A stretch of DNA of 64,000 nucleotides from an uncultured Candidatus Saccharibacteria bacterium (GCA_964634365.1 CAZWJU010000002.1:32069-96068); one strand, 5' to 3'; positions 1-18,175 are shown, counted from the stretch's first letter. Made by a program: numbers and translations. The notes: generated by a model from the sequence alone, not told the origin.

Positions 1-1323
1 ATACAAACCAAAGAAAAAGAATACTTGCCATCTGATAACGCTATTATAATCAGTGTAGAAAGTGGAATGTCTAGTCAGTTTAGTAAAGATTTAGCGAAAG
101 CAGTAAAGAGTGGCATTGATAAAAAAATTATTAAAGGGCTAGCTCCAGTATTGGCTCCTCTTGGATACTTAAATACTAAACACGAAGTTCGTGGTGAAAA
201 TTACATAATCAAAGACCCTGAACGATTTGAACTTATTAAGAGAGCGTGGAATATGATGCTAACTGGAGAATATACAATTCCTAAACTTCTAAAAATAATG
301 AATGATGATTGGGGTATGCGTACACGAACCACACGACATCGTGGAGGTGGAAAAATAAATAAAAGTACTATGTATAATATCTTAACCAATATATTTTATA
401 CTGGTCTTTTTATCTACAATGGAGAAGTTGGGAATGGTAAACACGAACCAATGATCACAATGGATGAGTTTGATATTGTTCAAAAGATGTTAGGGAGATA
501 TGGGAAACCAAGAGCCAAGAGTCATATATTTACGTACACTGGCACAATGATATGTGGTGAATGCGGTAGCTCTGTTACAGCTTGTACAAAGACGAAACTA
601 GTAAAAACTAAAAATGAATTAAAGGACTATACATTTTACTATTGTTCACACCGAAAGAAAGGAACAGAAAATTGCTCTCAAAGAGCTTTCATTCCATTGA
701 AAAATATGGAAGATATGATAAAGGAAGAAATAGACAAGTATACGATTTCAGAAAAGTTTAGAGATTGGGCATTAAGAATACTTGCAGAAGAACACTCTGA
801 TGAAGTTCGAGAGAGGGAGCTAATTTATAAAACACAATTAGGTGATATTGAGGCATCTCAAAGAGAGTTAGATAATTTAATAACAATGCGTATGCGTGAT
901 CTCATAAATGATGAACAATACGGTTCAAGGAAAAACGAGTTAACCGAGAAAATTGCAATCTTAAAGCAGAAAATCAATGAAACTGAAAGCCGAGCATTGA
1001 ACTGGTTACAATATACCGAACAAGTATTCAACTTTGCACAAGTAGCAAAAACCAAGTTTGAAGACCCTGAAACTACGATAGAAGATAAGAAAAGTATATT
1101 TACTGCACTTGGTTGGAACTATATAGTAAAAGACCAAAAACTCTTTATTTTACCGAATGATTGGCTAGAGCCAATAGATAAGAAGCGAAAAGCTGTAGAA
1201 AGTGAAATAAATCGGTTGGAACTGGAAAAAACCTTTGCTATAAAAGGACAAAACACCCGTTTAGGGGTGCTTTGTCCAATACTGCGCGACCGACCGGACT
1301 TGAACCGGCAACCTCCCGCGTGA
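1..1323 (+). CDS. Large serine recombinase (integrase-type), 5'-truncated at window edge; recombinase domain, zinc beta-ribbon and coiled-coil present
   Basis: Frame 1 is open from nt 1; the ORF track begins at TTG 25. It has a CX2C...YYCSH...C zinc-ribbon (CGECGSS...YYCSHRKKGTENC) followed by a long heptad-rich coiled-coil, as in C-terminal halves of large serine recombinases. The catalytic Ser domain would lie upstream of the window. The last ~13 codons overlap tRNA-Asp. Confidence 0.7.
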   Translation: MQTKEKEYLPSDNAIIISVESGMSSQFSKDLAKAVKSGIDKKIIKGLAPVLAPLGYLNTKHEVRGENYIIKDPERFELIKRAWNMMLTGEYTIPKLLKIMNDDWGMRTRTTRHRGGGKINKSTMYNILTNIFYTGLFIYNGEVGNGKHEPMITMDEFDIVQKMLGRYGKPRAKSHIFTYTGTMICGECGSSVTACTKTKLVKTKNELKDYTFYYCSHRKKGTENCSQRAFIPLKNMEDMIKEEIDKYTISEKFRDWALRILAEEHSDEVRERELIYKTQLGDIEASQRELDNLITMRMRDLINDEQYGSRKNELTEKIAILKQKINETESRALNWLQYTEQVFNFAQVAKTKFEDPETTIEDKKSIFTALGWNYIVKDQKLFILPNDWLEPIDKKRKAVESEINRLELEKTFAIKGQNTRLGVLCPILRDRPDLNRQPPA

Positions 1324-1358
1324 CAGGCGGGTGCTCTAACCAGTTGAGCTACGATCGC
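1285..1358 (-). tRNA. tRNA-Asp (anticodon GUC)
   Basis: Reverse complement folds as a cloverleaf: acceptor GCGATCG/CGGTCGC (one G-U pair), D-arm AGCTCAACTGGTTAGAGC, anticodon stem CCCGC/GCGGG with loop CTGTCAC, T-arm GCCGGTTCAAGTCCGGT, discriminator G; CCA not encoded. Confidence 0.85.
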
Positions 1359-1393
1359 ATATTATTTTCCGAACACAAATACAAATGTCCGTG

Positions 1394-1466
1394 TGTCGGA
1401 GGTGGGGATCGAACCCACGACCCCAGGCTTATGAGTCCTGTGCTCTACCGACTGAGCTACCCCGAC
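1394..1466 (-). tRNA. tRNA with CAU anticodon (Met elongator, or Ile2 if lysidinylated)
   Basis: Reverse complement: GTCGGGG-TA-GCTCAGTCGGTAGAGC...loop CTCATAA...GTGGGTTCGATCCCCAC-CTCCGAC-A. The anticodon stem has one A-G mismatch at 31-39. Confidence 0.7.
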
Positions 1467-1495
1467 AAAAAGCAAACTTCTTTGCTTTTTGTCGG
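1462..1495. repeat. Perfect 15-bp inverted repeat (CCGACAAAAAGCAAA cttc TTTGCTTTTTGTCGG) overlapping the 5' end of tRNA-CAT
   Basis: Read directly; palindromic hairpin whose left arm begins inside the tRNA acceptor stem. Confidence 0.6.
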
Positions 1496-1608
1496 TGGGT
1501 ATACCACCTGGTAAAGCAGTGCGATGTTGTGAGGCTTTTGCCGAACCATCGCTATCAAACAAGCTTGCCATTATTCGACATAGAGACATTGTGTCGCTTG
1601 CCGAAGTG

Positions 1609-1680
1609 TTGCGGGGGGACGATTCGAACGTCCGTCTTCAGGTTATGAGCCTGATGAGATAACCACTTCTCTACCCCGCT
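1609..1680 (-). tRNA. Second tRNA with CAU anticodon (initiator-like or Ile2/Met; A1-A72 mismatch or 6-bp acceptor)
   Basis: Reverse complement: (A)GCGGGG-TA-GAGA AGTGGTTA TCTC A TCAGG CTCATAA CCTGA AGAC GGACG TTCGAAT CGTCC CCCCGC A. The anticodon stem is perfect, the T-arm is canonical, and pairing at 1-72 is unusual. Confidence 0.65.
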
Positions 1681-1771
1681 ATATAAAAAATCGCCTTTTC
1701 TAAGACAAAGGTATTGTACCTAAATATGGTATTTTTGCAACCTTATAAATTATGACAAATACATGGTTGTA

Positions 1772-1800
1772 TTGACTTATCTATATTTTCATAGTATTAT
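1772..1800 (+). promoter_or_regulatory. Near-consensus sigma70-type promoter (TTGACT - 17 nt - TATTAT) for the downstream unknown gene
   Basis: TTGACT at 1772-1777, 17-nt spacer, TATTAT at 1795-1800. The first plausible start ATG (1817) is only ~10 nt beyond the expected TSS. Confidence 0.5.
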
Positions 1801-1816
1801 ATGCAAAAATCGACAG

Positions 1817-2680
1817 ATGAATAAAGAAAACGTATTGAACAAAACAGTCAGCCACACAGCTGCAATATTCCCTATTTTGATGGCTTTAAAAAAGTTTGAG
1901 GAAAAGGGGATCTATTTTACCGAAAGAACAACTGTTCAAAAAGACATCATGAGTTTACTCAGAGAAGCGGACCAAGTTAAGTATTCGGAAAATGAGATCA
2001 GGAGCTTCGTCGCAGACAATGCACCTGAGCTGAACAAAATCCTCCGTGATAATGGATTCGACATTCAGCTGGATGAAAAAGCACCATTCGACTTGGGAGT
2101 TGTTACGATCATGGACCTTGTAGCGAAATGGATCGCAAAAGCAAATTCTGCGATTGTAAACTATGAAGGTACTGAATACCCTGCTGCATTGATTAAGCAT
2201 GGTGCAAGTATCGTAAATAATGATTATGGTGAACGCACACTTATTATTCGTACAACGACGGGGTTATGTGTGTTTATCCAAATCGCCGATGAAGAAAAAT
2301 CTGGATTGGATTTATTTTGTCACATATTTGAACAAGCAAGGAAGATGACACACTCCGAAACACCGTGCGACGCGATTATCCCACTGGTAGACCTGAATGA
2401 ACAACCAGATATTAGCTGGCTTATCGGCATGAGCTGTGAATCGCCAAGATTTACAATCAACCAAGCACTGCAACAAAATCGCTTGAAAATTACCCTGGAT
2501 GGTATTCATGCTGAGAGCGCAGTAGCACTTGGAGCAGCAAGAGGTATCGGGCTGGAAAGACCAAGATTCGTAGTTGACCGACCGTTCAATATTTGGCTGG
2601 CTTACGGAAATCCGGAATTACAGTATTTCCCAATTTTCTGCGCATACGTTGCGCCGGATACTTGGAAAGAATCAAAATAA
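1817..2680 (+). CDS. Hypothetical protein (287 aa from ATG 1817; the ORF-track start 1763 lies inside the promoter), no recognisable motif, visibly higher GC than surrounding genes
   Basis: Long ORF with high-complexity composition; a promoter and a terminator bracket it; no family recognised from sequence. Confidence 0.5.
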   Translation: MNKENVLNKTVSHTAAIFPILMALKKFEEKGIYFTERTTVQKDIMSLLREADQVKYSENEIRSFVADNAPELNKILRDNGFDIQLDEKAPFDLGVVTIMDLVAKWIAKANSAIVNYEGTEYPAALIKHGASIVNNDYGERTLIIRTTTGLCVFIQIADEEKSGLDLFCHIFEQARKMTHSETPCDAIIPLVDLNEQPDISWLIGMSCESPRFTINQALQQNRLKITLDGIHAESAVALGAARGIGLERPRFVVDRPFNIWLAYGNPELQYFPIFCAYVAPDTWKESK

Positions 2681-2683
2681 TAA

Positions 2684-2708
2684 AAATCCCTCACACTGTG
2701 AGGGATTT
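2684..2708. terminator. Bidirectional intrinsic terminator (AAATCCCTCAC act GTGAGGGATTT) shared by convergent genes
   Basis: GC-rich perfect hairpin flanked by A-run and T-run on both strands. Confidence 0.7.
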
Positions 2709-2713
2709 AATTT

Positions 2714-3409
2714 TTATATATACTCAAATTCTTTAAATACAGACTTATAGAGTTCTATTACTCTTTTTGCCTCATGACGAGACAGTGTGTATTCTGAACC
2801 ATCGTGCGCGATACGATTGCGCACTTTGTGTGCTTCCCAAGCATTTTGCAAAGTTTTAAAATCACTTGCTTCTACGTTCTTCAATCTCTCGCCTAAGTTT
2901 TCACCCTTGTATCCCATACGCTCTACCATCTCATCGAGTATGATATCGGCTTCAAGTATTGCCTGACGCCAATCATTTTCATTTTCTGTATCCATATGTC
3001 GCTCGATAGATTCCCAACGCTCATTTTGTTTTTGTACTACAGGCTCAGGTTCTATTCCCTCTTTTTCTAGTTCATGATGTTTATCGTCTTCAATCTCTTT
3101 GATACGTAAATATGTATACGCAATCAAAACTGCCATGAGTACTCCTATGATCCCTAAAATTATTGAAAATATTCTAAAAAGACCGCCATTTACAATCAGA
3201 TTCCATATAGCCTCTAGCAATTGAACAACTCTGTAAAAAAGAAATTCTACGTTTAGATATGTCGGAAAAGCAGAACCTTCATTTACTCTGACACCTTGTC
3301 CCAAAAATACTATAACTGCCAATATGCCCAATACAGAAATAATAACCCAAGGTATCGGACCTATTCCACTTCCACCTCCGGCTTTTGGTTTTGGTTTTGG
3401 AGCTGCCAT
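2714..3409 (-). CDS. Membrane-anchored protein with C-terminal HEPN-like domain (two N-terminal TM helices, acidic linker, Rx4H motif VRNRIAHDG)
   Basis: TM1 PWVIISVLGILAVIVFLG and TM2 FRIFSIILGIIGVLMAVLIAYTY. The C-terminal ~120 aa contain ...AWEAHKVRNRIAHDGSEY..., matching the R-x4-6-H signature of HEPN RNase domains (DUF4145-like context). Confidence 0.5.
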   Translation of the reverse strand: MAAPKPKPKAGGGSGIGPIPWVIISVLGILAVIVFLGQGVRVNEGSAFPTYLNVEFLFYRVVQLLEAIWNLIVNGGLFRIFSIILGIIGVLMAVLIAYTYLRIKEIEDDKHHELEKEGIEPEPVVQKQNERWESIERHMDTENENDWRQAILEADIILDEMVERMGYKGENLGERLKNVEASDFKTLQNAWEAHKVRNRIAHDGSEYTLSRHEAKRVIELYKSVFKEFEYI

Positions 3410-3414
3410 AATAA

Positions 3415-4848
3415 CTATTCTATCACAGGGCGAATGAAGTTAACTTTGTTTTCAAACTTTTTAGCAACTTCAAAGAGTTCTTGTTCACTAAAATGTGGCC
3501 CCATAAATTGCATACCAATTGGTAAACCTTCAGTCGTAAATCCAGAAGGCACTGAAACAGCTGGGGTTCCAGCAATGTTTGCTGGAACTGTAAAAATATC
3601 TGATAAATACATAGAAACGGGATCAGATTTCTCCCCTATCTTGAATGCACCAGTCGCTGTTGTAGGTGTAAAAATAAAATCTACTTCTTTGAAAATATTT
3701 CTTAGTTCATTTGTAATCTCTTTTTGAAGTGCTAGGGCTTTGTTGTAGTACGCATCATAATATCCATGTGAAAGTACATATGTTCCAAGCAATATGCGAC
3801 GACGAGTTTCTTTACCAAAACCAACTCCGCGAGTCTTTGAATAAACTTCTTCTAGATTCTTACCTTCACTACGAAGGCCGAAGCGGACACCGTCAAAACG
3901 AGCCAAGTTAGAAGACGCTTCAGCTGGCTGGATAATATAGTACACAGCGAGCGAATATTTTATAAGCGGAAGTGACACATCGACAATCTCATAACCAAGA
4001 GATTTTAAATGTTCAATTGATTGATTGAAGTTGTCTTCTACTTCGGGGTTTAATCCAGTTAGAAAATCTCTAGGTATACCGATCTTTTTTGTATTAGCAA
4101 AGATAGATTTACGATTTGTTTTATCGACTGAAGTCGCTTCTAAAGCGTCCGATACATTTAGTGCATCAAACAATATCTTCGTATCGTCTATGTTTCGCGC
4201 AAATGGTCCAACCTGATCAAGCGAGCTCGCAAGTGCAATAATTCCGAAACGTGAAATTGTACTGTATGTAGGCTTTAGTCCGACAACTCCACAAAAAGCT
4301 GCTGGCTGACGAATTGATCCACCTGTGTCTGAACCGAGAGTAGCCAATGCCATATTTGCCGCTACAGCTGCAGATGATCCCCCAGAAGAACCTCCCGGAA
4401 CACGAGCTGTATCATATGGATTCTTTGGGACACCGTAAAAAGAAGTTTCAGATGAACTACCCATAGCAAACTCATCCATATTTGTACGTCCTAGTATAAC
4501 AGCTCCATTTTCTTTTAAAATCTTTGCAACAGTAGAATCGTAGCTAGCAACATAGCCACTCAGTATCTGTGATCCACATGTTGCAGATTTTCCACCAATT
4601 AGCATATTGTCTTTTAGCGCAACAGGAATCCCAGTTAAGAGAGTTGCAGAATTCGCCTTAAACATTTCATCTGCTCGGTCGGCTTGTTCTAATACATCAG
4701 AAAAAACTTCGATGTATATATTGAGCTCTTTGTTTTTTTTCTCGATTTGTTCTAGGTATGCATTTGCCAAATCACGAGCAGAGTACTCTCCTGCCTTCAT
4801 GGCATTGTGTGCTTTTTCTATTGAAAGTGAATTTAAATCTATTTTCAT
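3415..4848 (-). CDS. gatA: Glutamyl-tRNA(Gln)/aspartyl-tRNA(Asn) amidotransferase subunit A
   Basis: 477 aa; amidase signature GGSSGGSSAAVAA and conserved GatA blocks throughout. Confidence 0.9.
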   Translation of the reverse strand: MKIDLNSLSIEKAHNAMKAGEYSARDLANAYLEQIEKKNKELNIYIEVFSDVLEQADRADEMFKANSATLLTGIPVALKDNMLIGGKSATCGSQILSGYVASYDSTVAKILKENGAVILGRTNMDEFAMGSSSETSFYGVPKNPYDTARVPGGSSGGSSAAVAANMALATLGSDTGGSIRQPAAFCGVVGLKPTYSTISRFGIIALASSLDQVGPFARNIDDTKILFDALNVSDALEATSVDKTNRKSIFANTKKIGIPRDFLTGLNPEVEDNFNQSIEHLKSLGYEIVDVSLPLIKYSLAVYYIIQPAEASSNLARFDGVRFGLRSEGKNLEEVYSKTRGVGFGKETRRRILLGTYVLSHGYYDAYYNKALALQKEITNELRNIFKEVDFIFTPTTATGAFKIGEKSDPVSMYLSDIFTVPANIAGTPAVSVPSGFTTEGLPIGMQFMGPHFSEQELFEVAKKFENKVNFIRPVIE

Positions 4849-5171
4849 TATAAAATCTGTTTTACTTTCAAAAATCCATCTAAACTTTCTGGTAGATTTT
4901 CTGCTATTAAATCTAGAGTTTCATCTGAAGAAGAATCTACTATGTCTTCACGTACAACATTTTGAGTGATGTTCGGCTCTATGCTTGCACCTGAAATATT
5001 AACAGAACTTATCTGATCTATGTATTCGAGTATAGAAGCAAAATCTCCAAGAAGATTTTCCTTTTCTGCATCACTCATATCTAGGCGAGCCAATTGCGCC
5101 AATTTGTCTATATCTGCCTTTTGCATTTCCTGATTATAGCGTATTTTTTGGTTTTTTTCATTTATCGTCAA
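4848..5171 (-). CDS. gatC: Glu/Asp-tRNA amidotransferase subunit C
   Basis: 107 aa, acidic, GatC-like (..LARLDMSDAEKENL..); stop/start overlap with gatA. Confidence 0.75.
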   Translation of the reverse strand: MTINEKNQKIRYNQEMQKADIDKLAQLARLDMSDAEKENLLGDFASILEYIDQISSVNISGASIEPNITQNVVREDIVDSSSDETLDLIAENLPESLDGFLKVKQIL

Positions 5172-5577: not shown

Positions 5578-7584
5578 TTATTTTACCATTTTCAAGAATT
5601 CAGACTCCTCTATTACAGAAACCCCAAGCTTCTTCGCTTCATTGAGTTTTGATCCAGCACTCTCCCCTGCAAGCACGAAGCCTGTCGCTTTTGATACAGA
5701 TCCAGAAACTTTACCACCATTTTCAATAATTATTTTCTTTGCTTCTTCGCGAGAAAGGGTCGGGAGTGTTCCTGTTAGAACAAAAGTTTTGCCTGTAAAC
5801 TTCCCTACTGCTTTTTTATATTCTTTTGGTTTTACACCATTATCCAATAGTTTTTGTATAAACTTCTGATGATATGAGTCAGACAAATATTCCAAAATAC
5901 TCTCGGTCACAGCTGGGCCAATATTTTCTATCTCGTCCAAATCAGATTCTTTTGCATTTAAAAACTTCTTGAGTGTGCCGAAGTGTCCTGCCAAGTCCCG
6001 TGCAGTTTCTTCTCCAACATGGATTATCCCAAGCGATACAATAAATCTATCAAGTGTCGGGTTTCTCCTCTCTTTTATATTACTCACAATATTACTTGCA
6101 GACTTATCTCCAAATCTCTCAAGCCCTGACAAGTCAGCTTCGGTGAGAATGAAGAGATCTGCTCCGTCAGTTATCAATCCCTCGTCCTGAAGTCGCTCTA
6201 TTATCTTTGGACCAACAGTATAGATATCGAACGCATTTACGAAGTGAACAAGACCCCGGGAACTCTTGGCCTCACAGCGTTTGTTTGTACAGTAAAACGC
6301 CACACTTTTTCCACCCTGACCTTCTTTCTTCTCTACTTCCCCTCCACAGATAGGACACACACTCGGCATCTTAAAACTTTTTTCTTTTCCTGTGCGTAGA
6401 CTTTTCAATACTTCTACAACTTCGGGTATAACATCCCCTGCTTTTTGTATAACAACAGTGTCACCTATTTTTATATCGAGTCTTTCTATCTGATCCATGT
6501 TGTGAAGAGTCGACTTGGAAACAGTCGAACCAGAAACAAGAGTCGGTTCAAAATGTGCAAGTGGTGTCAAAACTCCTGTGCGTCCCACCTGAACTGTTAT
6601 GTCGAGAACCTTTGTGGTGGCGCGTTCTGCTGGATATTTAAATGCACACATATAGCGTGGGGCTTTGCCGACTATACCTAATCTCTCTTGCAAATCTGTC
6701 TCATCAATAGATATAACTATACCGTCTGTTCCAAAAGGTAATTTTTCTCTTATCTTTTTTATTTCTTCGATAAAAGATTCTACTTCTTTTAAGTTTTTGC
6801 ATTTCTTCTCATGAACTGAAACTGGAAAACCGAGCGAGACAAGTAGTCTATGTTCGTCTGAATGTTTTTTTATATTTTTTTCATAATCTGCCGATAGTTC
6901 TGCTATGTCATATGCAAAAAAAGATAGGTGACGCTCCTTTACTACACTAGGATCAAGCTGACGAACTGAACCAGCAGAAGCGTTGCGAGTGTTTGCAAAC
7001 TTGGGTAGGCCGAGCTTTTCATTTTGTTTGTTTAACTTTTCGAGAACGTCTTTTGACATAACTATCTCTCCGCGAACTTCTATCTTTTTAGGAGAATCTT
7101 TTGGGAGAGTAAGTGGTATGTCAGTTATCATTTTTATATTTTCTGTTATGTTTTCTCCGACAAATCCATCTCCTCGAGTTCCTCCATAAACAAGTTTTCC
7201 ATTTTCATAAAGCAAAGTAACAGCTAGACCGTCGAACTTTAGCTCGGCAAAATATGTGGGAGTTTTTCCAGGAATAAGTTTTAGTGCCCTTTTTTCCCAA
7301 TCAGCGAGTTCTTCATAAGAAAAAACATCTGCTAGTGAGGTCATGCGAGAGCTGTGAGTTATCTTTTCAAACTTGGGAAGAGGAGCGCCTGCTACACGAG
7401 AAAGCGGGTCATCTTTTACACGAAACTCTGGGAATTTGTCTTCTAGAAGTCTAAGCTCTCTGGTTAGAGAATCATAAACATCGTCAGTTACAGAAGGGTC
7501 GTTTTCTACATGATAGCGAAAACGGAGACTTTGTATCTCCTCGCGCAACTTTTCTATTCTGTTTTTTGCTTCTTTTTTATCCAT
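5578..7584 (-). CDS. ligA: NAD-dependent DNA ligase
   Basis: Adenylation-domain motifs, a CPICGGEV zinc finger, HhH region and C-terminal BRCT. The likely start is the ATG at 7584 (MDKKEAK...), because the ORF-track extension to 7605 runs into a terminator hairpin. Confidence 0.9.
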   Translation of the reverse strand: MDKKEAKNRIEKLREEIQSLRFRYHVENDPSVTDDVYDSLTRELRLLEDKFPEFRVKDDPLSRVAGAPLPKFEKITHSSRMTSLADVFSYEELADWEKRALKLIPGKTPTYFAELKFDGLAVTLLYENGKLVYGGTRGDGFVGENITENIKMITDIPLTLPKDSPKKIEVRGEIVMSKDVLEKLNKQNEKLGLPKFANTRNASAGSVRQLDPSVVKERHLSFFAYDIAELSADYEKNIKKHSDEHRLLVSLGFPVSVHEKKCKNLKEVESFIEEIKKIREKLPFGTDGIVISIDETDLQERLGIVGKAPRYMCAFKYPAERATTKVLDITVQVGRTGVLTPLAHFEPTLVSGSTVSKSTLHNMDQIERLDIKIGDTVVIQKAGDVIPEVVEVLKSLRTGKEKSFKMPSVCPICGGEVEKKEGQGGKSVAFYCTNKRCEAKSSRGLVHFVNAFDIYTVGPKIIERLQDEGLITDGADLFILTEADLSGLERFGDKSASNIVSNIKERRNPTLDRFIVSLGIIHVGEETARDLAGHFGTLKKFLNAKESDLDEIENIGPAVTESILEYLSDSYHQKFIQKLLDNGVKPKEYKKAVGKFTGKTFVLTGTLPTLSREEAKKIIIENGGKVSGSVSKATGFVLAGESAGSKLNEAKKLGVSVIEESEFLKMVK

Positions 7585-7593
7585 AATGGAAAA

Positions 7594-7614
7594 GTACAGG
7601 AACATATCCTGTAC
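7594..7614 (-). terminator. Intrinsic terminator hairpin (GTACAGGA acata TCCTGTAC) after the pilus gene block
   Basis: 8-bp perfect stem followed by a T-run on the minus strand, immediately downstream of the PilX-like gene stop. Confidence 0.5.
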
Positions 7615-7679: not shown

Positions 7680-8279
7680 TTACAGAGCGCCGGTGCCGGT
7701 ACCATCTCCTTCAGCACCTCCTTCTGGTGGAGGAACCTCGCCTCCACCCGCATCACCTCCTCCGTCTACTGCAACAGCCACTGGGTTTGGATATTTTACT
7801 TCGAGCAATCTTTCGACAATGCGATTTGTATCGAAAGAATCAAGCTGTGCACAATCTATATTGTAACCCTGAGATATTATACGTGTGTAGCTAGTACCGT
7901 CTATATCAAAATTTTTATTTACCTCAACAGTCGCACAACTACGAGGAGACAGATCAAATTCAAATGTAAACAAGGTTGGAGAAATATCTTCAAAATTAGC
8001 GACCATACCATCTCTACACTCTGGGACTATTGGAGAAACTGGATTGAAAGCATTTTGTTTTAAATCATAATACAAAGCACATTCACTACCAGCGTCTGCT
8101 GCATAAAAAGCTAAGTTAGATTCTTTTGCTGAAACAGTAAGCTCGGTTTCTTTTAAGGCTATATTGAATATACCTGTTGCAAGCACTAGTACGATAACAG
8201 ATATCAAAACTGTAAAAAGCACAACAAAACCATCTTGCTTGCTACCTGTCTTTTTTATTTGTTCGATAAATATTTTCAT
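7680..8279 (-). CDS. Pilus minor component, PilX-like (N-terminal hydrophobic helix, Gly/Pro/Glu-rich C-terminus)
   Basis: N-terminal QDGFVVLFTVLISVIVLVLATG resembles a pilin-like helix without canonical Glu5; last gene of the pseudopilin block. Confidence 0.45.
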   Translation of the reverse strand: MKIFIEQIKKTGSKQDGFVVLFTVLISVIVLVLATGIFNIALKETELTVSAKESNLAFYAADAGSECALYYDLKQNAFNPVSPIVPECRDGMVANFEDISPTLFTFEFDLSPRSCATVEVNKNFDIDGTSYTRIISQGYNIDCAQLDSFDTNRIVERLLEVKYPNPVAVAVDGGGDAGGGEVPPPEGGAEGDGTGTGAL

Positions 8280-8282
8280 ATT

Positions 8283-8894
8283 TTATATTGCACTTACATG
8301 TGGCTGCCAATCCATCAAAATATTTTGATAAGTAATAGTCTGCTCTGACAAACCTTCGTACCAAGTTACTTTACTAGTAACCAAAACATCGTCTGCTAAA
8401 GTTTCATTAATCGGCAAAACAAATATTGTTCTAGTAAAAGGTGAGGCTACTGATCCACTAGGAAGATCACATGCATCACTCTGGTCGTATCCAAAATATC
8501 CAGAAGTCTCTGAGTACGGAATATTGCAAGTAGACCCAGTACATGCGCATACATCTAAAGTAGACGGGTCTATGTTGCAACCAGCTGTCCCACTACAAGT
8601 ATTAATATTTGATAAGAAAATATCCCATCCGGCACCAGAAGGGTCGGATATAACTGAAGTATCTCTAATATTACGAACTGTCTCTACACCCTCTTGGGCT
8701 AGATACGAAGCTGTAAGTCTAGACTTTGCTAGAGTTGTGTTTGATACACCACCACTTGCGACAACTATCAGAAAAACAATCGATGAAGAAAATATAGCCA
8801 AGGCCACAAGAGTTTCTACTATTGTAAAACCAGAATTTTTACTTGCTATTTTATTTATTTTAAAAAGTTTGTTTTGCATATATTTAAAAATCAA
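8283..8894 (-). CDS. Type IV pseudopilin (prepilin-type N-terminal cleavage/methylation domain)
   Basis: SGFTIVETLVALAIF class III signal (G/FTxxE). Confidence 0.7.
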   Translation of the reverse strand: MIFKYMQNKLFKINKIASKNSGFTIVETLVALAIFSSSIVFLIVVASGGVSNTTLAKSRLTASYLAQEGVETVRNIRDTSVISDPSGAGWDIFLSNINTCSGTAGCNIDPSTLDVCACTGSTCNIPYSETSGYFGYDQSDACDLPSGSVASPFTRTIFVLPINETLADDVLVTSKVTWYEGLSEQTITYQNILMDWQPHVSAI

Positions 8895-9543
8895 TTTGTC
8901 TTTGGGATATAGTAGTCTGAACAGAAAAAGGAGTAGATATATCTTGATAAACTATATCTCCTGCCAATCTAATAGTAACTTTCGGCTGCACACCATCGCC
9001 TAGCATAGGATTTGGATTTTCAGCATTCTCAATATTGAACCCAGATTTATTTGGATCTAAATGCACAGAGTATGGGGTCAAATCTAAACACCCACTACCT
9101 GTAGGCGATGTAGCACAAGTAATACCAGCACCTTTTACAAGCTTGTAAATTCCAGTACCTGAGATTTCTACAATTCTGTACACAACCTGGTCTCCATCGT
9201 CAGAAATATTACCGTTAACTTTTTCGAAAGCCATAGACTGATATGGTGTTATACCCTCTTCAAAAGGACAATCCTCTGCCTCACCCAATCCACCAATAGA
9301 TGCTCTACAGTTATATAAACTTCCTAGGCGAATATTTCTAGACATGTCTTCTAAAACAAAGTGCATACTATCTATCGCCTGTCTAGAATCTGATGTCTTT
9401 TTATGAATTTGATTTACTCTCAAAACCGCTCCGATACCTATTATCATCACAACAGTAAAAAGCCCGACCGCTATAACAATCTCTATAACTGTAAAACCAG
9501 ATTTTTTGTTTTTATGATTTTTGTATTTCATATTGTTTAACAA
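8884..9543 (-). CDS. Type IV pseudopilin
   Basis: KKSGFTVIEIVIAVGLF prepilin motif. Confidence 0.7.
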   Translation of the reverse strand: MLNNMKYKNHKNKKSGFTVIEIVIAVGLFTVVMIIGIGAVLRVNQIHKKTSDSRQAIDSMHFVLEDMSRNIRLGSLYNCRASIGGLGEAEDCPFEEGITPYQSMAFEKVNGNISDDGDQVVYRIVEISGTGIYKLVKGAGITCATSPTGSGCLDLTPYSVHLDPNKSGFNIENAENPNPMLGDGVQPKVTIRLAGDIVYQDISTPFSVQTTISQRQIDF

Positions 9544-10184
9544 GCAAAACCACCTCCATCACAAGCATCAACTGGTCCGTCAGATACACTGATCTGGCCA
9601 GTAGGCCATATGGAAATATTCATATTGGCACCTTTTGGAGAAACTATTTCTATTTTTGCACCCGATGATAATTCATATAAAGTATCAAATTTTGTGCCGT
9701 ATATTTTAGGTTCTGGAAAAGGTCTGACATAGGTAACAGACAAATCTTCGTACCCACAAGAACCATCATGAGTACAGATATCAGATATCGCATCACCTGA
9801 TTGAATTGTTGTTGTAGACAGACATTCAATACCAAGCTCCCCTGGTGTGTCGCAATCACCATCAAAAAGAAAATTTCTAGGAGAACCTAAGTCTCTAAAA
9901 TAAATAAACGACTCTGGTGTATCCATATCAAAATAAATTCCGTATGAAGGTGGCTGACCACTATCTAAACCTCCAGTAAGTCTTCCAGATATAGCGTTTG
10001 TCTGAGCTTTTTTAATATGCAAAGCTATGTCTTGAGATAGATTTTGAAGTGAAGCTTTTGTAGAAAAATCTGAAAAGTTAAAAAGTGTGACACTAGATAT
10101 AATACCAACTATAGACAAAACCACTATGAGCTCTATAAAAGTCATCCCCTTTTTGTATTTATAATTTTCTTTAAAAATTTTCAT
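9537..10184 (-). CDS. Type IV pseudopilin (Cys-rich C-terminus)
   Basis: KGMTFIELIVVLSIVGI prepilin motif. Confidence 0.7.
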   Translation of the reverse strand: MKIFKENYKYKKGMTFIELIVVLSIVGIISSVTLFNFSDFSTKASLQNLSQDIALHIKKAQTNAISGRLTGGLDSGQPPSYGIYFDMDTPESFIYFRDLGSPRNFLFDGDCDTPGELGIECLSTTTIQSGDAISDICTHDGSCGYEDLSVTYVRPFPEPKIYGTKFDTLYELSSGAKIEIVSPKGANMNISIWPTGQISVSDGPVDACDGGGFAC

Positions 10185-10991
10185 TTAGAAAAATAAACTA
10201 CTTAAAAATCTAGAGAGTGATTCGAAAGATGTTCCGAAAATATATACAAACAATGTTCCAAATACTAAAAACGGACCAAAAGGAATCTCACTTTTCATAG
10301 TATATCTAGAATGCCTAGCTATTAGAAGTATTATAGAAACGATTGCACCCACCCAAAAAGAAATCATGAGAGCCGCAATCCCGTGAGATAGACCGAGGAA
10401 AAATCCCATACCCATCATGAGCTTTAGATCGCCAAAACCCATCAGTCTACCTTTTGATAAAAGCCAGAGTATATAAAAAGGTAGTGGTATGAGTATCCCT
10501 GCAAAAGCATCTATAGGATCTGGGGTAATAATCCCATAAGCATTTGAAAACATTCCCAAGAAACTAACCAAAATAAAAGTGTAGACTAAGGCGTTTGGAA
10601 TAATCTTGTGACGAATGTCGTATACAGCTATCACTATAAGCAATGAAGCCATAAACATAGAATATATAAGTGGAGCAACAGTAACGAAAGAAACTGTTTC
10701 AGAAGATAAGAACTTATTGGCTAGAAATACAAAGATAAAAGCTGTAGATATTTCAACAAGTGGGTATTGGATAGAGATTTTTGATTTACAAACTGAACAC
10801 TTACCACGTAAAAATATGTAACTGAAAATCGGAAAAAGTTCATACCAATGAAGAGTCTTGCCACAAGACAGACACATGGATCTACCACCTAGTCCCCAAC
10901 CAGTCTGGTAACGGTATATAACAACATTCAAGAAACTTCCGATAAAGAGTCCTAGGATAAATATTATAAATATTGGTAAAAAAGTATTCAT
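10185..10991 (-). CDS. pilD: Prepilin peptidase (A24 family)
   Basis: N-terminal CxxC...CxxC zinc tetracysteine, multi-TM, conserved Asp-containing GFGDLKL block. Confidence 0.85.
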   Translation of the reverse strand: MNTFLPIFIIFILGLFIGSFLNVVIYRYQTGWGLGGRSMCLSCGKTLHWYELFPIFSYIFLRGKCSVCKSKISIQYPLVEISTAFIFVFLANKFLSSETVSFVTVAPLIYSMFMASLLIVIAVYDIRHKIIPNALVYTFILVSFLGMFSNAYGIITPDPIDAFAGILIPLPFYILWLLSKGRLMGFGDLKLMMGMGFFLGLSHGIAALMISFWVGAIVSIILLIARHSRYTMKSEIPFGPFLVFGTLFVYIFGTSFESLSRFLSSLFF

Positions 10992-10998
10992 TTATATT

Positions 10999-11511
10999 TT
11001 ATGGTACTAGGTCGTAACATTTTCCACCAGCAGGCTCTATAGCAGTACCCTTGCAAGACTGTGTATCATCGCCACGAATAGAGTCGGAATTTAAGCCGTT
11101 TAGGTTATCACATAGGTTTAGACCAGTCCCTATTAAACCTGTATTTGTAGATGTAAGGTCACGATCAGTTTGCAATACGTTATTATTTTTTTCTAAAGAA
11201 GTACCAATATGATATGAAGAACATTGACCACCAGACCCACCCAAGCCTATGTAATATACTCCAGTTGGAAGTGAGGGTATGTATGTTGGAGAGAGAGTTG
11301 CTGCTGTCTGAGGATAGTAACCATTTGCGCTGAAATATAAATTCAACGCATTGACCACAGATTTTAATTCTGTAATTTTTTTTGTATCGCGACCACCGGC
11401 ACGTGCTGATGAAACCGAAGCGAATATTACAGAAGCTATAATTCCGATTATAGCAATAACGATAAGGAGTTCCAAAAGAGTAAAACCTTTAAAGTTTTTA
11501 TATTTTTTCAT
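10999..11511 (-). CDS. Type IV pilin
   Basis: KGFTLLELLIVIAIIGIIA class III signal; 170 aa. Confidence 0.75.
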   Translation of the reverse strand: MKKYKNFKGFTLLELLIVIAIIGIIASVIFASVSSARAGGRDTKKITELKSVVNALNLYFSANGYYPQTAATLSPTYIPSLPTGVYYIGLGGSGGQCSSYHIGTSLEKNNNVLQTDRDLTSTNTGLIGTGLNLCDNLNGLNSDSIRGDDTQSCKGTAIEPAGGKCYDLVP

Positions 11512-12283: not shown

Positions 12284-15193
12284 ATGAAAAAGATTACTCT
12301 AACATTTTTACTGATACTTTTGATAGTATCTGCATGCCTATCACAAACAGTGGTAGATGGATTTCAATATATTCTAGGCGACAAAGGTATCGACAGTATT
12401 ACAAATACAGAATACCAAGTTGCAGAACAAATTAATCCAGCAACATACACCGTCGTTGGCTATGCTGATATTGAGATTAATGAAATGTATCCATATTTCA
12501 TAAGCTCAACACCAAACAGAGGGTCGGTGACTATATCAGACAGACATAACGACAGTGATGATGGCGACTGGTCCCCTGGTGGAATACATCCGGGGGAAGA
12601 TTGGAACTATGGAAGTGTGGGTGAAGATATTGGAATGCCTATATACGCTACAGCAAATGGAGTTATACACGATTTTCGAATGCTGTCATATCCAATCAAT
12701 AAGTCTGGGTGGTGCATGGTAATAAAACACTTCATGCCCGATGGTTCATATGTGTATAGTTTTTATATGCATATAACAAATATCGCAAATACCGACGGCG
12801 CAATATGTCTAAATGAAAGTGATTTTGGTTTTTCTATAGGCGAAGAAGTAACAAGAGGTCAAATGATTGCACGAATAGGAAATGTAACTAGTTTTGGTAG
12901 TCATTGCCATTTTGAAATCAGAAGCTTGTATGACCAAGAGTTGGACCTGTGGCCAAATGGACCAGGTGGGCGTTATCCTGAATATTCCAATTCATACAAA
13001 TATGCAATTGATATAGAAAATGTAGCTCTTGCTTACTATGAAATGCAATTAGATGGAATTTTAGATGCATCAGATTTTATTGACACACATAGACCGAGTG
13101 AATTTATTGAAACTGAACCAGTCTGTATAGACCCAGAGATTGAATGGCAAAATACTATTGGAGGAATAAGCAATGATGAACTGTATGTGGTAAAAAAAGT
13201 TTCTAATGGCTACATATTGGGAGGTAATTCTAATTCTGATATATCTATAGACAAAATAGAAATATCAAATGGCGGGATTGATTACTGGATAATAAAGACA
13301 GATGATACGGGTATGATTCAATGGCAGAATACTATTGGAGGAAGTGGCGATGATAGATTATGTTATATTAGCCAGACTACAGATAATGGTTATATATTAG
13401 GAGGATGCTCAAATTCTGGTATTTCAGGAGATAAAAATGAATCATCTTATGGTGCACAAGATTTATGGATAGTAAAAATAGACTCTATCGGGAATATACA
13501 GTGGCAGAATACTATTGGAGGAAGTGGCGATGATATATTGTCGTCTATAAAACAAACCGTAGACGGAGGTTATATACTAGGAAGTTATTCAAATTCTAAT
13601 ATATCAGGAGATAAAGCTGAAGCTAGTTTGGGCGGGATTGATTACTGGATACTTAAATTAGATTTTTCAGGTAATGTACAGTGGCAGAATACTATTGGAG
13701 GAAGTGATGGAGATTACTTGTACGATATTATTCAAACATCCGATAATCAGTATTTACTTGGTGGCTATTCAAATTCTAGTATTTCGGTAGATAAAACTGA
13801 AGCAACCAATGGCAATAATGATTATTGGATAATCAAGATAGATGATTTTGGTGATATACAATGGCAAAATACTATTGGAGGAAGTGGCGATGATATATTA
13901 TTTTCAATACAAGAAATACCAAGTAGCGGTTATTTAATAGGTGGTAAATCTGGATCTAATATTTCAGGAGATAAAAGTGAAAATAGTCTAGGATACCTTG
14001 ATTACTGGATACTTAAATTAGATTTTTCAGGTAATGTACAGTGGCAGAATACTATTGGAGGAAATTTAGACGACAATTTAACAAGTATTTCAAAAACTGG
14101 CGATAATGGAGTGCTCATTTCTGGCTACTCAAATTCTGGTATTTCAGGAGATAAAAATGAAGCTCTAATTGGAATATATGATGGGTGGATAGTAAAAATA
14201 GACTCTATCGGGAATATACAGTGGCAGAATACTATTGGAGGAACCGGATATGATTTTTTATATTGCACTCAAGAAATATCCAGTGGTGAATATATTCTGG
14301 GATTCACTTCAGGATCTACTATTTCCGGAGATAAAGATGAAGATAATCTGGGAAACTATGATTATTGGGTAATTAAATTATTTGGTACCTGTAACCCATC
14401 CACTGAAATTTGCAATACTTTCGATGACGATTGTGATGGACTTATCGACGAAGACCTGGAACCATCTATATCAATCGAAGCATTGGGGTCTACAACCTTC
14501 TGCCAAGGAAGTAGTGTCGTGCTTACAGCAACCCATACCGGAACATCAGTACAGTGGTATAAAAATGGATCAATAATTTCTGGCGCAACTTACGATTTTA
14601 TAACCGTATCTGCGACCGGAAACTATACATGCATAAGCTCCAATGAATGTGCAAGTACAACTTCAAACTCTGTAATTGTAAACGTAAATAAAAATCCATC
14701 TGCAAATATAACAGCGGGCGGTCCAACTAGTTTCTGTTTTGGAGGAAGTGTCACACTTACAGCAAACACTGGGGCTTCACTATCCTACCAATGGTACAAA
14801 GGTGCAACAGCCATCGCTGGAGCAACTAGTATAAATTACGTAGCTACAACTTCTGGAAACTACAAATGTAGAGTAACCAAAACTGCCACAGGGTGTTACA
14901 AGAATTCAAATACTATAACAGTATCTGTAACCTGCCGAGAAGGTGTATCGATAGATCAAATACTTAGCCCAAATCCAGCGAGCAATATCTTGTATGTGGA
15001 TTTGATGGATTTTGAAAGTGACGCTTTGGATATATACATGATCAACAATATAGGTCAAAAAGTCCTTGCCAAAAAAACCGAAGGAGGACACCTGATTGAT
15101 CTTGATATATCTTCCCTGCCAAAAGGGCTGTACTCATTTTTCATAATGAAAGAAGGTTTTATTATTTACTCAGAAAAATTTATCGTCGAGTAG
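12284..15193 (+). CDS. Secreted multidomain protein: signal peptide, M23 (LytM-type) metallopeptidase domain, seven tandem ~60-aa SBBP beta-propeller repeats, CxxxDDDCDG motif, three Ig-like repeats and a T9SS-type C-terminal sorting domain
   Basis: M23 motifs HPGED and GSHCHFE (HxxxD and HxH). Seven repeats of ..IQWQNTIGGSGDD...YILGG.SNS.ISGDK.E...G..DYWI.K.D. FC.GGSVTLTA...YQWYKNG...GNYTC repeats. C-terminus SPNPASNILYVDL...IYMINNIGQKV...IDLDISSLPKGLYSF matches the Por-secretion CTD pattern. Confidence 0.65.
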   Translation: MKKITLTFLLILLIVSACLSQTVVDGFQYILGDKGIDSITNTEYQVAEQINPATYTVVGYADIEINEMYPYFISSTPNRGSVTISDRHNDSDDGDWSPGGIHPGEDWNYGSVGEDIGMPIYATANGVIHDFRMLSYPINKSGWCMVIKHFMPDGSYVYSFYMHITNIANTDGAICLNESDFGFSIGEEVTRGQMIARIGNVTSFGSHCHFEIRSLYDQELDLWPNGPGGRYPEYSNSYKYAIDIENVALAYYEMQLDGILDASDFIDTHRPSEFIETEPVCIDPEIEWQNTIGGISNDELYVVKKVSNGYILGGNSNSDISIDKIEISNGGIDYWIIKTDDTGMIQWQNTIGGSGDDRLCYISQTTDNGYILGGCSNSGISGDKNESSYGAQDLWIVKIDSIGNIQWQNTIGGSGDDILSSIKQTVDGGYILGSYSNSNISGDKAEASLGGIDYWILKLDFSGNVQWQNTIGGSDGDYLYDIIQTSDNQYLLGGYSNSSISVDKTEATNGNNDYWIIKIDDFGDIQWQNTIGGSGDDILFSIQEIPSSGYLIGGKSGSNISGDKSENSLGYLDYWILKLDFSGNVQWQNTIGGNLDDNLTSISKTGDNGVLISGYSNSGISGDKNEALIGIYDGWIVKIDSIGNIQWQNTIGGTGYDFLYCTQEISSGEYILGFTSGSTISGDKDEDNLGNYDYWVIKLFGTCNPSTEICNTFDDDCDGLIDEDLEPSISIEALGSTTFCQGSSVVLTATHTGTSVQWYKNGSIISGATYDFITVSATGNYTCISSNECASTTSNSVIVNVNKNPSANITAGGPTSFCFGGSVTLTANTGASLSYQWYKGATAIAGATSINYVATTSGNYKCRVTKTATGCYKNSNTITVSVTCREGVSIDQILSPNPASNILYVDLMDFESDALDIYMINNIGQKVLAKKTEGGHLIDLDISSLPKGLYSFFIMKEGFIIYSEKFIVE
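13138..14400 (+). repeat. Seven tandem 180-bp intragenic repeats (propeller blades) with stretches of 57-66 nt of perfect nucleotide identity between non-adjacent units
   Basis: 13638-13704 is identical to 13998-14064, and 13467-13524 is identical to 14187-14244; read directly. Confidence 0.8.
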
Positions 15194-17106: not shown

Positions 17107-17116
17107 GGTTTAAAAA

Positions 17117-18175
17117 TTAAAGTAATCGCTCTAAAGCTTTTGGGTTAAGTGAATATAGGTAAGCGTTGTCCATAGTGATCTGTCCTGCACGCACAAGCTC
17201 AACAAGAGAGCGGTTCATATCTATCATGCCATGTTCATATCCAGTTTCTATTACTACATCTATCTCGTGAGTTCGCTTTTCACGAATTAGATTTTGTACT
17301 GCATTGTTGTTCACAAGAAGCTCATAAGCTGGGACGAGTCCACCAGTTATACAAGGTATAAGTCTCTGAGAAAATATTCCAATCAAACTCGAAGCAAGTT
17401 GTATACGAATCTGATCTTGCTGACCAGGTGGAAATGCGTCGATTATACGATCAATAGTCTGAGAAGCATTGTTTGTGTGTAGAGTAGAAAAAACCAAGTG
17501 ACCAGTCTCAGCAGCTGTAACAGCAGTAGATATAGTTTCGGCGTTGCGCATCTCACCTATCAGTATTACATTTACATCTTCACGGAATACAGATTTTAAA
17601 GCTGAGTTGAAATCTTTTGTATCTATACCAACTTCACGTTGATCTATAATAGAGTGTTTTGGTGTATACATATATTCTATCGGGTCTTCGATAGTAACTA
17701 TGTGTTCTGCGCGTTCGTTGTTTATGAGATTCACCATAGAAGCGAGTGTTGTAGACTTACCCTGACCAACCGGTCCTACTACTAGGAAGAATCCTTGTTT
17801 CTTTCTGCAAAAAGTTTCGATGATTGGTGGAAGTCTAAGTTCAGCAAGAGTTTTAACTTGTGGTATAAGTCTTAGAGCAATCCCTGCTATACCTTTTGAA
17901 AAGAAAGCGTTACCGCGAAGTCTCGCCTCCCCTTTGAAGTCGTATGAAAAATCAATCTCCTGATCTTCTAAAAATTTCTTGTATTTAACGTCATCCAATA
18001 ACTCTTTTAGGATTCCTAGTGAGTCTTCTTTTGTGTATACACTATGTTTAACTAAAAAGTTCAATTGTCCTGAAACACGTATCGCAGGATAACGCATCCC
18101 AGCAATATGAAGATCGGACCCGCCTTCGCGGATTAGGGTAGTCAATAAATCTTCGAGTTCTTTTGCGTAATCCAT
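17117..18175 (-). CDS. pilT: Type IV pilus retraction ATPase
   Basis: 352 aa; Walker A GPVGQGKST; PilT-length hexameric ATPase. Confidence 0.85.
   Translation of the reverse strand: MDYAKELEDLLTTLIREGGSDLHIAGMRYPAIRVSGQLNFLVKHSVYTKEDSLGILKELLDDVKYKKFLEDQEIDFSYDFKGEARLRGNAFFSKGIAGIALRLIPQVKTLAELRLPPIIETFCRKKQGFFLVVGPVGQGKSTTLASMVNLINNERAEHIVTIEDPIEYMYTPKHSIIDQREVGIDTKDFNSALKSVFREDVNVILIGEMRNAETISTAVTAAETGHLVFSTLHTNNASQTIDRIIDAFPPGQQDQIRIQLASSLIGIFSQRLIPCITGGLVPAYELLVNNNAVQNLIREKRTHEIDVVIETGYEHGMIDMNRSLVELVRAGQITMDNAYLYSLNPKALERLL

Follow-up and report, generated by a model that had tools for sequence, protein, structure and literature searches.

The cowpox virus serpin CrmA (341 aa) has been called "a minimal serpin" in one review, and it is a picomolar inhibitor of caspases (PMC7863939). 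Membrane-associated HEPN proteins of the DUF4145 and Swt1 types, including fusions with transmembrane (TM) and SH3 domains, were predicted to be cytoplasmic, stimulus-dependent RNases and were compared to Ire1; TM+SH3+DUF4145 architectures were listed for Firmicutes (Anantharaman et al. 2013, PMC3710099). Here, two neighboring genes are compared with these systems. They lie in a 64,000-nt stretch of DNA from an uncultured Candidatus Saccharibacteria bacterium (the window; all coordinates are those of the whole window). Gene 1 encodes a minimal serpin-fold protein, and gene 2 encodes a membrane-anchored HEPN-domain protein. A preliminary description had proposed two open reading frames (ORFs), and both are intact at the positions proposed, with 287 and 231 aa (Table 1). 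It had joined them into a horizontally acquired defense or toxin module. The reading favored here, with a probability of about 0.7, is that they are two functionally independent convergent genes with a shared terminator, gene 2 being a core membrane HEPN gene and gene 1 a minimal serpin. The two fold assignments and the mutual independence of the genes are highly probable. The specific mechanisms proposed below, an inhibitory serpin for gene 1 and a membrane-gated RNase for gene 2, are tentative, with odds slightly short of even.

Gene 1 Encodes a Minimal Serpin

When the two proteins were searched directly against Pfam, NCBIfam, PADLOC, and PDB sequences, only sub-threshold or chance matches were returned. 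The earlier statement that gene 1 has no recognizable domain holds at curated thresholds. It does not hold below them, where Pfam Serpin (PF00079) is matched with the e-value 0.037 (13.7 bits against 27). In an alignment of 40 family members, 34 match Serpin at e-values of 0.1 or lower (best 1.1e-6). When 18 relatives were scanned singly, six reached 27 bits (such as P0153 with 28.6 and P0215 with 34.7), and the match was confined to the last ~70 residues. The family profile retrieved 123 distinct PDB sequences at e-values of 10 or lower with PAI-1 as the best (1.3e-7), and all significant matches among those listed are serpin-fold proteins. No solved serpin is more than 16% identical to gene 1. 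The AlphaFold2 (AF2) model has a predicted local distance difference test score (pLDDT) of 88.6 and a predicted template modeling score of 0.86, and its sole segment below pLDDT 50 is residues 234-243. A Foldseek search against viral models (BFVD) found only serpins of eukaryotic viruses (poxviruses and giant viruses).

The canonical serpin topology is established and was used for matching the order of elements. The model contains sheets A, B, and C and the C-terminal unit s5A-RCL-s1C-s4B-s5B, where RCL is the reactive-center loop. The last ~100 residues align to s2C/s6A-s5A-RCL-s1C-s4B-s5B of alpha-1-antitrypsin, and the invariant P189 stands opposite P289, and D/N-[KR]-P-F opposite N-K-P-F, of that protein. 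Thus, the protein that had been presented as an uncharacterized partner of the HEPN protein is a stand-alone cytoplasmic minimal serpin, in which the core beta-sheets, s5A, the hinge, and an exposed RCL are retained.

The hinge reads G229(P15)-I-H-A-E-S-A-V-A-L-G-A-A-R242-G. Among 222 aligned members, G229 is present in 221, and the remaining row has a gap. The inward positions are uncharged and small or hydrophobic: P14 is A, I, or V, P12 is V or A, P10 is S (202 members), and P8 is V, A, or T. P9 is A in 204 members, and S234 and A235 are near-invariant. At P14, the window protein has I where A prevails in the family, and both P6 and P4 are hydrophobic. An exposed RCL and small or uncharged inward hinge residues are both present in gene 1. 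Position 242 is R or K in 130 of the 222 members, and positions 243-250 are hypervariable with insertions and deletions. An insertion-compatible hinge together with a variable distal loop is the pattern expected of an inhibitory serpin. Judged from these residues, gene 1 would act as a suicide-substrate protease inhibitor; a target protease would cut the loop near Arg/Lys 242 and would then be trapped by insertion of the loop into sheet A.

The full canonical scaffold of helices A-I in ~350-400 aa is not present in gene 1, whose model has about five helices in 287 aa. Before s3A, the elements of the model are limited to a short strand, then a long helix and two short ones, followed by a strand and a further helix. 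In the alignment of hidden Markov models (HMMs), position 87 of the gene 1 profile stands opposite position ~165 of the C1-inhibitor chain, and hhalign places a ~16-residue deletion around helix I. By this comparison, gene 1 would lack ~90-100 scaffold residues, ~70-85 of them before s3A and ~16 around helix I. In the model, the absent elements are most likely helices A and D, one strand of sheet A, and one of helices E or F.

The Mini-Serpin Family and Its Neighborhoods

The profile was searched against 1.84 billion cluster representatives (clusters of 50% identity). There were 924 representatives at e-values of 1e-30 or lower and 1,523 at 1e-10 or lower. Nearly all of the best 150 matches span the full profile, with lengths mostly of 277-320 aa. 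The median length is 295 aa (221 members), and ~12% of the collected members exceed 320 aa. The longer proteins among the best 150 mostly have an N-terminal extension, in which no domain was recognizable in those scanned. Named members come from Ktedonobacteraceae, Terriglobia, and Kaiserbacteria, and one JGI record is annotated as "Serpin". A literature search on serpins in Patescibacteria, truncated or mini serpins, and serpins with CHAT found no description of the family in the library covered. A 2021 phylogeny of the serpin superfamily dropped sequences more than 25% shorter than the median (PMC8233489), and the class of mini-serpins would be excluded by this filter.

The neighbors of mini-serpins are heterogeneous and mostly ordinary chromosomal genes. 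When neighbors from 47 non-redundant locus groups were clustered with blastp, no family occurred in more than four groups. A Pfam scan of 147 ORFs flanking mini-serpins found no family in more than four ORFs, and no protease among the 25 most frequent families reported. One locus (L120:1238-4186, +) encodes a 983-aa fusion of an N-terminal mini-serpin and a CHAT caspase-like protease (PF12770, e-value 2.9e-14), in which the His and Cys motifs are apparently intact (YFYCHA and FINACES). This fusion is a single "Rosetta-stone" hint that CHAT-type proteases may be targets or partners of mini-serpins. The target of gene 1 would not be encoded next to it, and the fusion hints at caspase-like (clan CD) proteases.

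Several other loci of the family showed features of their own. Three mini-serpin-like ORFs within a 9.5-kb locus (L105, metagenome contig Ga0074195_1000216) represent a local expansion. RtcB RNA ligase genes lie a few kb from mini-serpins in two loci (L116:1906-3282 and L091 12441-13679); the blastp family of the former occurs in three of the 47 locus groups, too few for an association. Small ORFs downstream of the mini-serpin in L005 and L007 have no recognizable domain. The identical mini-serpin P0136 is found on two contigs (L007 6793-7819 vs. L008 1-7819). On one, it lies just downstream of a tRNA-Asn; on the other, where no tRNA was detected, it lies beside an island with a serine recombinase, two methyltransferases, and an excisionase-like HTH protein. 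This pair adds a second example of a mini-serpin at the edge of an integration hotspot.

Some observations weigh against gene 1 as an inhibitory serpin. The Serpin match of the window protein itself is sub-threshold. P11 is charged (E/K/Q), which is unusual among inhibitory serpins, and the conserved Arg/Lys aligns to P2, not P1. The missing helices were listed from the order of secondary-structure elements and not from a superposition. If part of sheet A or helix F is lost, the spring-loaded mechanism could be abolished. Only one CHAT fusion occurs among ~300 family members seen. Gene 1 may instead have kept the serpin fold in a non-inhibitory role, either as a binding or chaperone protein like ovalbumin, HSP47, and maspin, or as a cleavable sensor or decoy that switches a partner. 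Such a role is doubtful, yet it has a real chance. The charged P11 and the basic P2 would suit it, as would the loss of about a quarter of the canonical scaffold and the lack of a protease gene linked to mini-serpins, and a covalent fusion with CHAT fits an intramolecular regulatory or sensor function. However, the hinge pattern at P14, P12, P10, and P8 is conserved and compatible with insertion, hypervariability of the distal loop is expected under target-driven selection on an inhibitor, and CrmA has kept its inhibitory potency as a minimal serpin (PMC7863939).

Gene 2 Encodes a Membrane-Anchored HEPN Protein

Homology searches with gene 2 found over 1,560 relatives; most are 185-200 aa long, and none carries a name other than "hypothetical". 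In an alignment of 47 homologs down to 39% identity, the C-terminal ~105 residues are strongly conserved and carry the canonical R-N-x3-H signature as RNRIAH, within the sequence AWEAHKVRNRIAHDG. The residues W132, W147, D155, G169, F184, A190, W191, H194, R197, N198, I200, A201, and H202 are invariant. AF2 predicts the C-terminal domain with pLDDT >95 as a four-helix up-and-down bundle of the HEPN type.

The HEPN assignment proposed earlier is supported in fold and motif; the HEPN_Swt1 and DUF4145 profiles both stay below their curated thresholds (15.2 vs. 27.5 bits and 13.9 vs. 23.1 bits, respectively). The sub-threshold Pfam matches of the 47 members converge on one clan. HEPN_Swt1 is matched by 17 and DUF4145 by 10 of them (best e-values 0.0033 and 0.00028), in addition to Hypoth_Ymh, RiboL-PSP-HEPN, and Cthe_2314-HEPN. 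A PDB profile search with gene 2 returned nothing meaningful, and no description of the family was found in a literature search that included HEPN in Patescibacteria. A membrane-anchored protein with a C-terminal HEPN fold and an R-x4-H motif is supported by these data.

The two TM helices, the acidic linker, and the R-x4-H sequence reported in the preliminary description are all present. The hydrophobic segments are residues ~12-43 and 67-104, where AF2 places helices 21-38 and 76-116, in addition to a helix at 54-74. The linker, residues 102-121, contains 8 D/E against 4 K/R. Most relatives carry the second TM only. The mean number of K+R in the 15 aa after the last TM is 3.62, compared with 0.99 before it, and the excess lies after the TM in 73 of 78 members. 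By the positive-inside rule, this excess places the HEPN domain in the cytoplasm. The window protein has a Lys-rich tail ahead of its extra N-terminal TM, which indicates that both ends are cytoplasmic and that a loop of ~40 residues faces outward.

Relatives of 443-696 aa with one to seven repeats between TM1 and TM2 still lie directly after gatA (L022:4417-6504, L075:5098-6492, L073:2806-4143, L086:5131-6462, and L063:5134-6462). The repeats are of the type G-x-V-x-x-GP-x-x-x-GERYWYVDFESGPDGWV. Sub-threshold Pfam matches from L086 (SH3_3, e-value 1.8e-5; GW, e-value 1.6e-3) suggest that they may be SH3b-like.

Considering the invariance of the motif, the HEPN domain would act at the inner membrane face as an endoribonuclease that needs no metal. 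It would probably be dimeric with a composite active site, by analogy with other HEPN RNases. The RNase activity would be gated through the anchor or the outer loop in an Ire1-like layout of sensor, TM, and HEPN. A point to be set against this mechanism is that an intact HEPN RNase, constitutively encoded and with no visible antitoxin, would need to be controlled, and such control is itself a prediction.

Gene 2 Is a Core Gene Behind gatC-gatA

In a scan of one genome per species, the pattern HK[VI]RNxIAH recovered at least 581 confirmed relatives of gene 2. Among the matches listed, all carriers are metagenome-assembled genomes (MAGs) of the Parcubacteria/Paceibacteria type, labeled as Nomura-, Lloyd-, Campbell-, Vogel-, Zambryski-, Kaiser-, and Taylorbacteria or Paceibacterota, with many generic labels. 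Many MAG titles read "Candidatus Saccharibacteria", which makes the taxonomic span of gene 2 uncertain and counts against too wide a statement on its distribution.

The gene order was examined in the best 80 loci, placed with tblastn. In 79 of these, gatA lies immediately upstream of gene 2 on the same strand; in the 80th, the upstream DNA ends after 118 bp, so the linkage holds in 79 of 79 informative loci. By ORF rank, gatA is at -1 in 76 loci and gatC at -2 in 63, ligA is upstream in 60, and pilin-like genes precede ligA. The adjacency of gatC-gatA and gene 2 is strict across deep divergence (35-50% identity). The order ligA-gatC-gatA-gene 2 is kept both in the closest relative (L001, 84% identity) and in a 617-kb genome (L004, 44% identity). 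In the window, only 5 nt separate the gatA stop codon from the start of gene 2, too few for a promoter or terminator.

The genes downstream of gene 2 vary between loci. A family length-matched to the release-factor gene of L004 (293 aa; PCRF/RF-1) and families matching ftsE and ftsX recur there in ~15 of 55 loci. The fixed gatCA upstream and the variable genes downstream indicate that gene 2 ends a vertically inherited block and that a synteny breakpoint follows it. Gene 2 is thus a lineage-wide core gene of Paceibacteria/Parcubacteria-type genomes of the candidate phyla radiation (CPR), and not defense cargo. The preliminary description had regarded it as accessory and had itself named core conservation among relatives as evidence to the contrary; such conservation is what the loci revealed.

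In the common gatCAB arrangement, gatB holds the slot after gatCA, and this slot is occupied here by gene 2. The HEPN domain may be a tRNA- or nucleotide-handling accessory of GatCA, which would, for example, tether transamidation to the membrane or check mischarged Asp-tRNAAsn and Glu-tRNAGln, and not a free-standing RNase. This is quite improbable. It draws on the strict adjacency and on gatB, which was not seen beside gatA in the annotated loci L001 and L004 nor among the ten largest ORFs of the window in a Pfam scan; gatB was looked for only there and may be encoded elsewhere. However, ligA and the pilin-like genes belong to the same block, and the synteny may be operon inertia. The invariant R-N-x3-H suggests catalysis over mere binding, and the searches with gene 2 detected no similarity to GatB domains. 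A functional tie between gene 2 and GatCA, for example via tRNA, is possible and is not required by the data.

Origin of the Arrangement

The linkage of the two genes, proposed as a horizontally acquired pair, was examined from both sides. No relative of gene 1 was found in the 80 gene 2 loci, and gene 2 with gatA was found near a mini-serpin in one of the 47 locus groups, that of the closest relative L001. There, the order is gene 2, an unrelated 270-aa gene, a mini-serpin (72% identity), and dinB; in the window, it is gene 2, the mini-serpin, three tRNAs, and the recombinase. The 270-aa gene was considered as a paralog of the mini-serpin and was rejected (hhalign probability 0.3%). The shared placement indicates that the serpin has been at the breakpoint of the operon end since before the split of the window and L001, and no further back. 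No paralog of gene 1 or gene 2 was found within the window.

The tRNAs and the serine recombinase do flank the region. Their proximity had been taken as a sign of a mobile islet. Where an element has integrated into a tRNA gene, the 3′ end of its recombinase gene typically overlaps the 3′ half of the tRNA. The last ~40 nt of the recombinase gene (1284-1323) overlap the 3′ half of tRNA-Asp, which suggests an element integrated into tRNA-Asp and extending to the left, with both genes outside it, beyond the tRNA cluster. PADLOC gave no match for gene 1 and a chance-level match for gene 2 (e-value 0.012, 12.6 bits), so neither protein is significantly related to a defense system represented there. 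In tblastn searches, gene 1 matched none of 50,697 phage and 72,556 plasmid records, and gene 2 matched none of the phages.

The composition of the genes differs. The GC content of gene 1, earlier described as visibly higher than that of its neighbors, is only modestly raised, at 0.417 against an ORF mean of 0.375 (standard deviation 0.030) in the window. At third codon positions (GC3), it is 0.396 for 1817-2680 against 0.278 (standard deviation 0.052). The GC3 deviation of z ~+2 was computed on the ORF 1763-2680 (GC3 0.386), and several other ORFs of the window are equally high. Gene 2 is average (GC3 z = -0.05). A patchy, accessory distribution is seen for gene 1 alone, since gene 2 is fixed after gatA. 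Gene 1 looks like a lineage-specific insertion at the synteny break after the operon. Its raised GC3 and its patchy phyletic spread are compatible with horizontal acquisition of gene 1 alone. The end of the gatCA operon would be a breakpoint where lineage-specific genes accumulate, and this would explain the position of gene 1.

Among 2.9 million viral contigs in IMG/VR, three contain a relative of gene 1 (L093, L094, and L095; 435, 391, and 204 kb), and these very large contigs could come from giant or jumbo viruses or be cellular DNA that was misclassified. It is very unlikely that gene 1 came as cargo with a mobile element or virus, for instance as an anti-defense protease inhibitor left at an integration hotspot. 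Its GC3, its place beside the tRNAs and recombinase, the similar surroundings of P0136, the patchy spread across phyla, and the three large contigs would agree with such an origin. Yet three contigs are few among the millions, the phage and plasmid records are empty, the fold matches in BFVD are serpins of eukaryotic viruses only, most neighbors of mini-serpins are ordinary chromosomal genes, and the recombinase element lies across the tRNAs.

Scarcely tenable is the toxin or abortive-infection module of the preliminary description, with the HEPN protein as effector and gene 1 as antitoxin, sensor, or regulator: the genes are adjacent and convergent with a common terminator and near each other in L001 too, the HEPN fold and motif do exist, the GC3 of gene 1 is elevated, and a recombinase and tRNAs are nearby, but the model is largely refuted by the co-occurrence data, that is, by a gene 2 fixed behind gatA and mini-serpins in 47 different contexts, and further by the unrelated gene that splits the pair in L001, by convergent genes that are not co-transcribed while gene 2 is translationally adjacent to gatA, and by the PADLOC results and the boundary of the element.

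Layout of the Locus

The features of the locus are listed in Table 1.

Table 1. Positions of the two genes and the features around them.
Feature	Position	Strand	Evidence
Serine recombinase, C-terminal part	25..1323	+	Pfam Recombinase / Zn_ribbon_recom, e-values 1.7e-8 / 5.5e-9
tRNA-Asp(GTC)	1284-1358	-	ARAGORN; Rfam tRNA (62-69 bits across all three tRNAs)
tRNA-Met(CAT)	1393-1466	-	ARAGORN; Rfam tRNA (62-69 bits across all three tRNAs)
tRNA-Met(CAT)	1608-1680	-	ARAGORN; Rfam tRNA (62-69 bits across all three tRNAs)
Candidate sigma-70-like promoter of gene 1, TTGACT-17-TATTAT	1772..1800	+	Consensus scan, 10/12 positions
Gene 1, 287-aa minimal serpin-fold protein, no signal peptide	1817..2680	+	Intact ORF
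Gene 1 serpin hinge and RCL, residues 229-250 (G-I-H-A-E-S-A-V-A-L-G-A-A-R-G-I-G-L-E-R-P-R)	2501..2566	+	pLDDT; alignment to PAI-1 / alpha-1-antitrypsin RCLs
Bidirectional intrinsic-terminator-like hairpin	2684..2708	both	11-bp stem, 5 GC pairs, T-runs on each strand
Gene 2, 231-aa membrane-anchored HEPN-domain protein, last gene of the gatC-gatA operon	2714..3409	-	Intact ORF
Gene 2 cytoplasmic HEPN domain (residues ~126-231); R197-N198-x3-H202 codons at 2804-2821	2717..3034	-	
Gene 2 membrane anchor (residues ~17-101): TM1, ~40-aa outer loop with amphipathic helix, TM2	3107..3361	-	Hydropathy, charge counts, AF2 helices
gatA	3415-4848	-	ORF; named by tblastn to loci with an Amidase Pfam gene
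gatC	4848-5171	-	ORF; named by tblastn to loci with a GatC Pfam gene
ligA (NAD-dependent DNA ligase)	5578..7605	-	ORF; counterpart upstream of gatC-gatA in ~60/80 loci; DNA_ligase Pfam domains in L001, L004

The ORF of the large serine recombinase is open at the start of the window, with no in-frame stop in bases 1-24. The near-consensus promoter of gene 1 is present as described earlier; it is a consensus match only, and such sites are not enriched, as the region has 7 against 6.2 expected from shuffled sequence. From this candidate, the leader to the ATG at 1817 would be ~10 nt. An alternative ATG at 1763 would give a protein of 305 aa (18 extra residues) and lies upstream of the promoter-like -35 box. 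All 39 aligned homologs begin level with the ATG at 1817.

The shared bidirectional terminator proposed earlier was recovered as the hairpin between the two convergent stop codons. Judged by its stem and T-runs, it would terminate the transcripts of gene 1 and of ligA-gatC-gatA-gene 2 alike. Besides the three tRNAs, an Rfam scan of 1200-3500 gave only a sub-threshold PyrG_leader match at 2674-2745 (34.9 bits; gathering score, 65), which is most likely due to the terminator hairpin it covers. Another terminator-like hairpin with a 9-bp stem, at 2804-2824, coincides with the opposite-strand codons for V-R-N-R-I-A-H of the HEPN motif. Since it is inside the ORF of gene 2, it is most likely a palindrome of codon choice and not a terminator.

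Other genes of the window are recorded here. Pilin-like genes at 7680-11511 (-) lie directly upstream of ligA, and most relatives keep them in the same block. A type IV pilus assembly cluster with a PilM-like protein, two T2SSE ATPases, and T2SSF lies nearby at 15904-23847 (-). A 969-aa protein encoded at 12284-15193 (+) combines an M23 peptidase, Ig-like domains, and Por_Secre_tail, a type IX secretion sorting domain that is surprising outside Bacteroidota-type secretion systems. A biopterin-dependent aromatic amino-acid hydroxylase at 30314-31204 (-; Pfam e-value 2e-31) has the highest GC3 of the 65 ORFs of the window (0.428, z = +2.85). In a small CPR-type genome, this enzyme is unusual, and its gene may have come by horizontal transfer.

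Comparison with Known Systems

If mini-serpins are working spring-loaded inhibitors or cleavage sensors despite the loss of about a quarter of the scaffold, they would redefine the minimal machinery of the serpin conformational trap. If gene 1 is inhibitory, it has the smallest serpin scaffold known and is a natural test of whether metastability and protease trapping can do without helices A, D, and F and a complete five-stranded sheet A. In that case, serpin diversity is also larger than counted so far, since a class of at least 900 clusters falls outside length filters and Pfam thresholds. HEPN RNases are usually seen as conflict or toxin modules, and a core gene 2 behind gatCA would represent a housekeeping or sensory use across a class of CPR bacteria, whose genomes are minimal and have few known RNases. 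An HEPN gene next to an integrase is by itself no indication of a defense island.

Gene 1 shares with CrmA the serpin fold, reduced helices, an intracellular location without a signal peptide, and an exposed RCL. The cross-class inhibition of caspases by CrmA is paralleled by the single fusion of a mini-serpin with CHAT. Gene 1 differs in being bacterial, in being ~54 residues shorter, in having Arg/Lys-Gly instead of Asp at the predicted cleavage site, and, by element order, in apparently lacking helix A, helix D, and part of hE-s1A-hF. The characterized prokaryotic serpins (thermopin 1sng/1mtp, tengpin 2pee, miropin 5ncs, siropins, and chloropin) are likewise bacterial and have a hinge of small residues. 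They are ~370-420 aa long and score above the Pfam Serpin threshold, whereas the gene 1 family, smaller than any characterized serpin, has a median of ~295 aa and most of its members are recognizable by Pfam in the last ~70 residues only.

HepT toxins of HEPN-MNT systems (SO_3166 5yep, 7ae2, and 8xdj) are only 7-9% identical to gene 2, which has no adjacent MNT antitoxin gene, is membrane-tethered, and is core and not mobile. The DUF4145-like and Abi2/Swt1-like membrane HEPN proteins (PMC3710099) are closer, with an N-terminal TM, a cytoplasmic HEPN domain, and an intact Rx4-6H motif, and they include the best Pfam families of gene 2. All the matches are sub-threshold, however, and the WP signature of the DUF4145 TM group was not seen in gene 2. 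Moreover, gene 2 is a single-locus core gene behind gatCA, whereas the families in that study are mostly linked to restriction-modification or abortive infection. In outline, gene 2 resembles the KEN domains of Ire1 and RNase L, and C6orf70, in which an outside sensor, a single- or double-pass TM, and a cytoplasmic HEPN RNase activated by dimerization are combined (PMC3710099). Gene 2 has no kinase module, the outer loop of the window protein is ~40 aa with no demonstrated sensor, and common descent with Ire1 and RNase L is supported at the level of the HEPN superfamily only.

Taken jointly, the ~290-aa serpins may be working inhibitors or cleavage sensors acting on cytoplasmic caspase-like (CHAT) or other Arg/Lys-directed proteases of bacteria, and gene 2 may be an Ire1-like sensor RNase of Paceibacteria that couples the state of the envelope to the cleavage of tRNA or mRNA; that both proposals hold together is unlikely. 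The locus holds a membrane HEPN gene embedded in a core operon beside an accessory minimal serpin from a large uncharacterized family.

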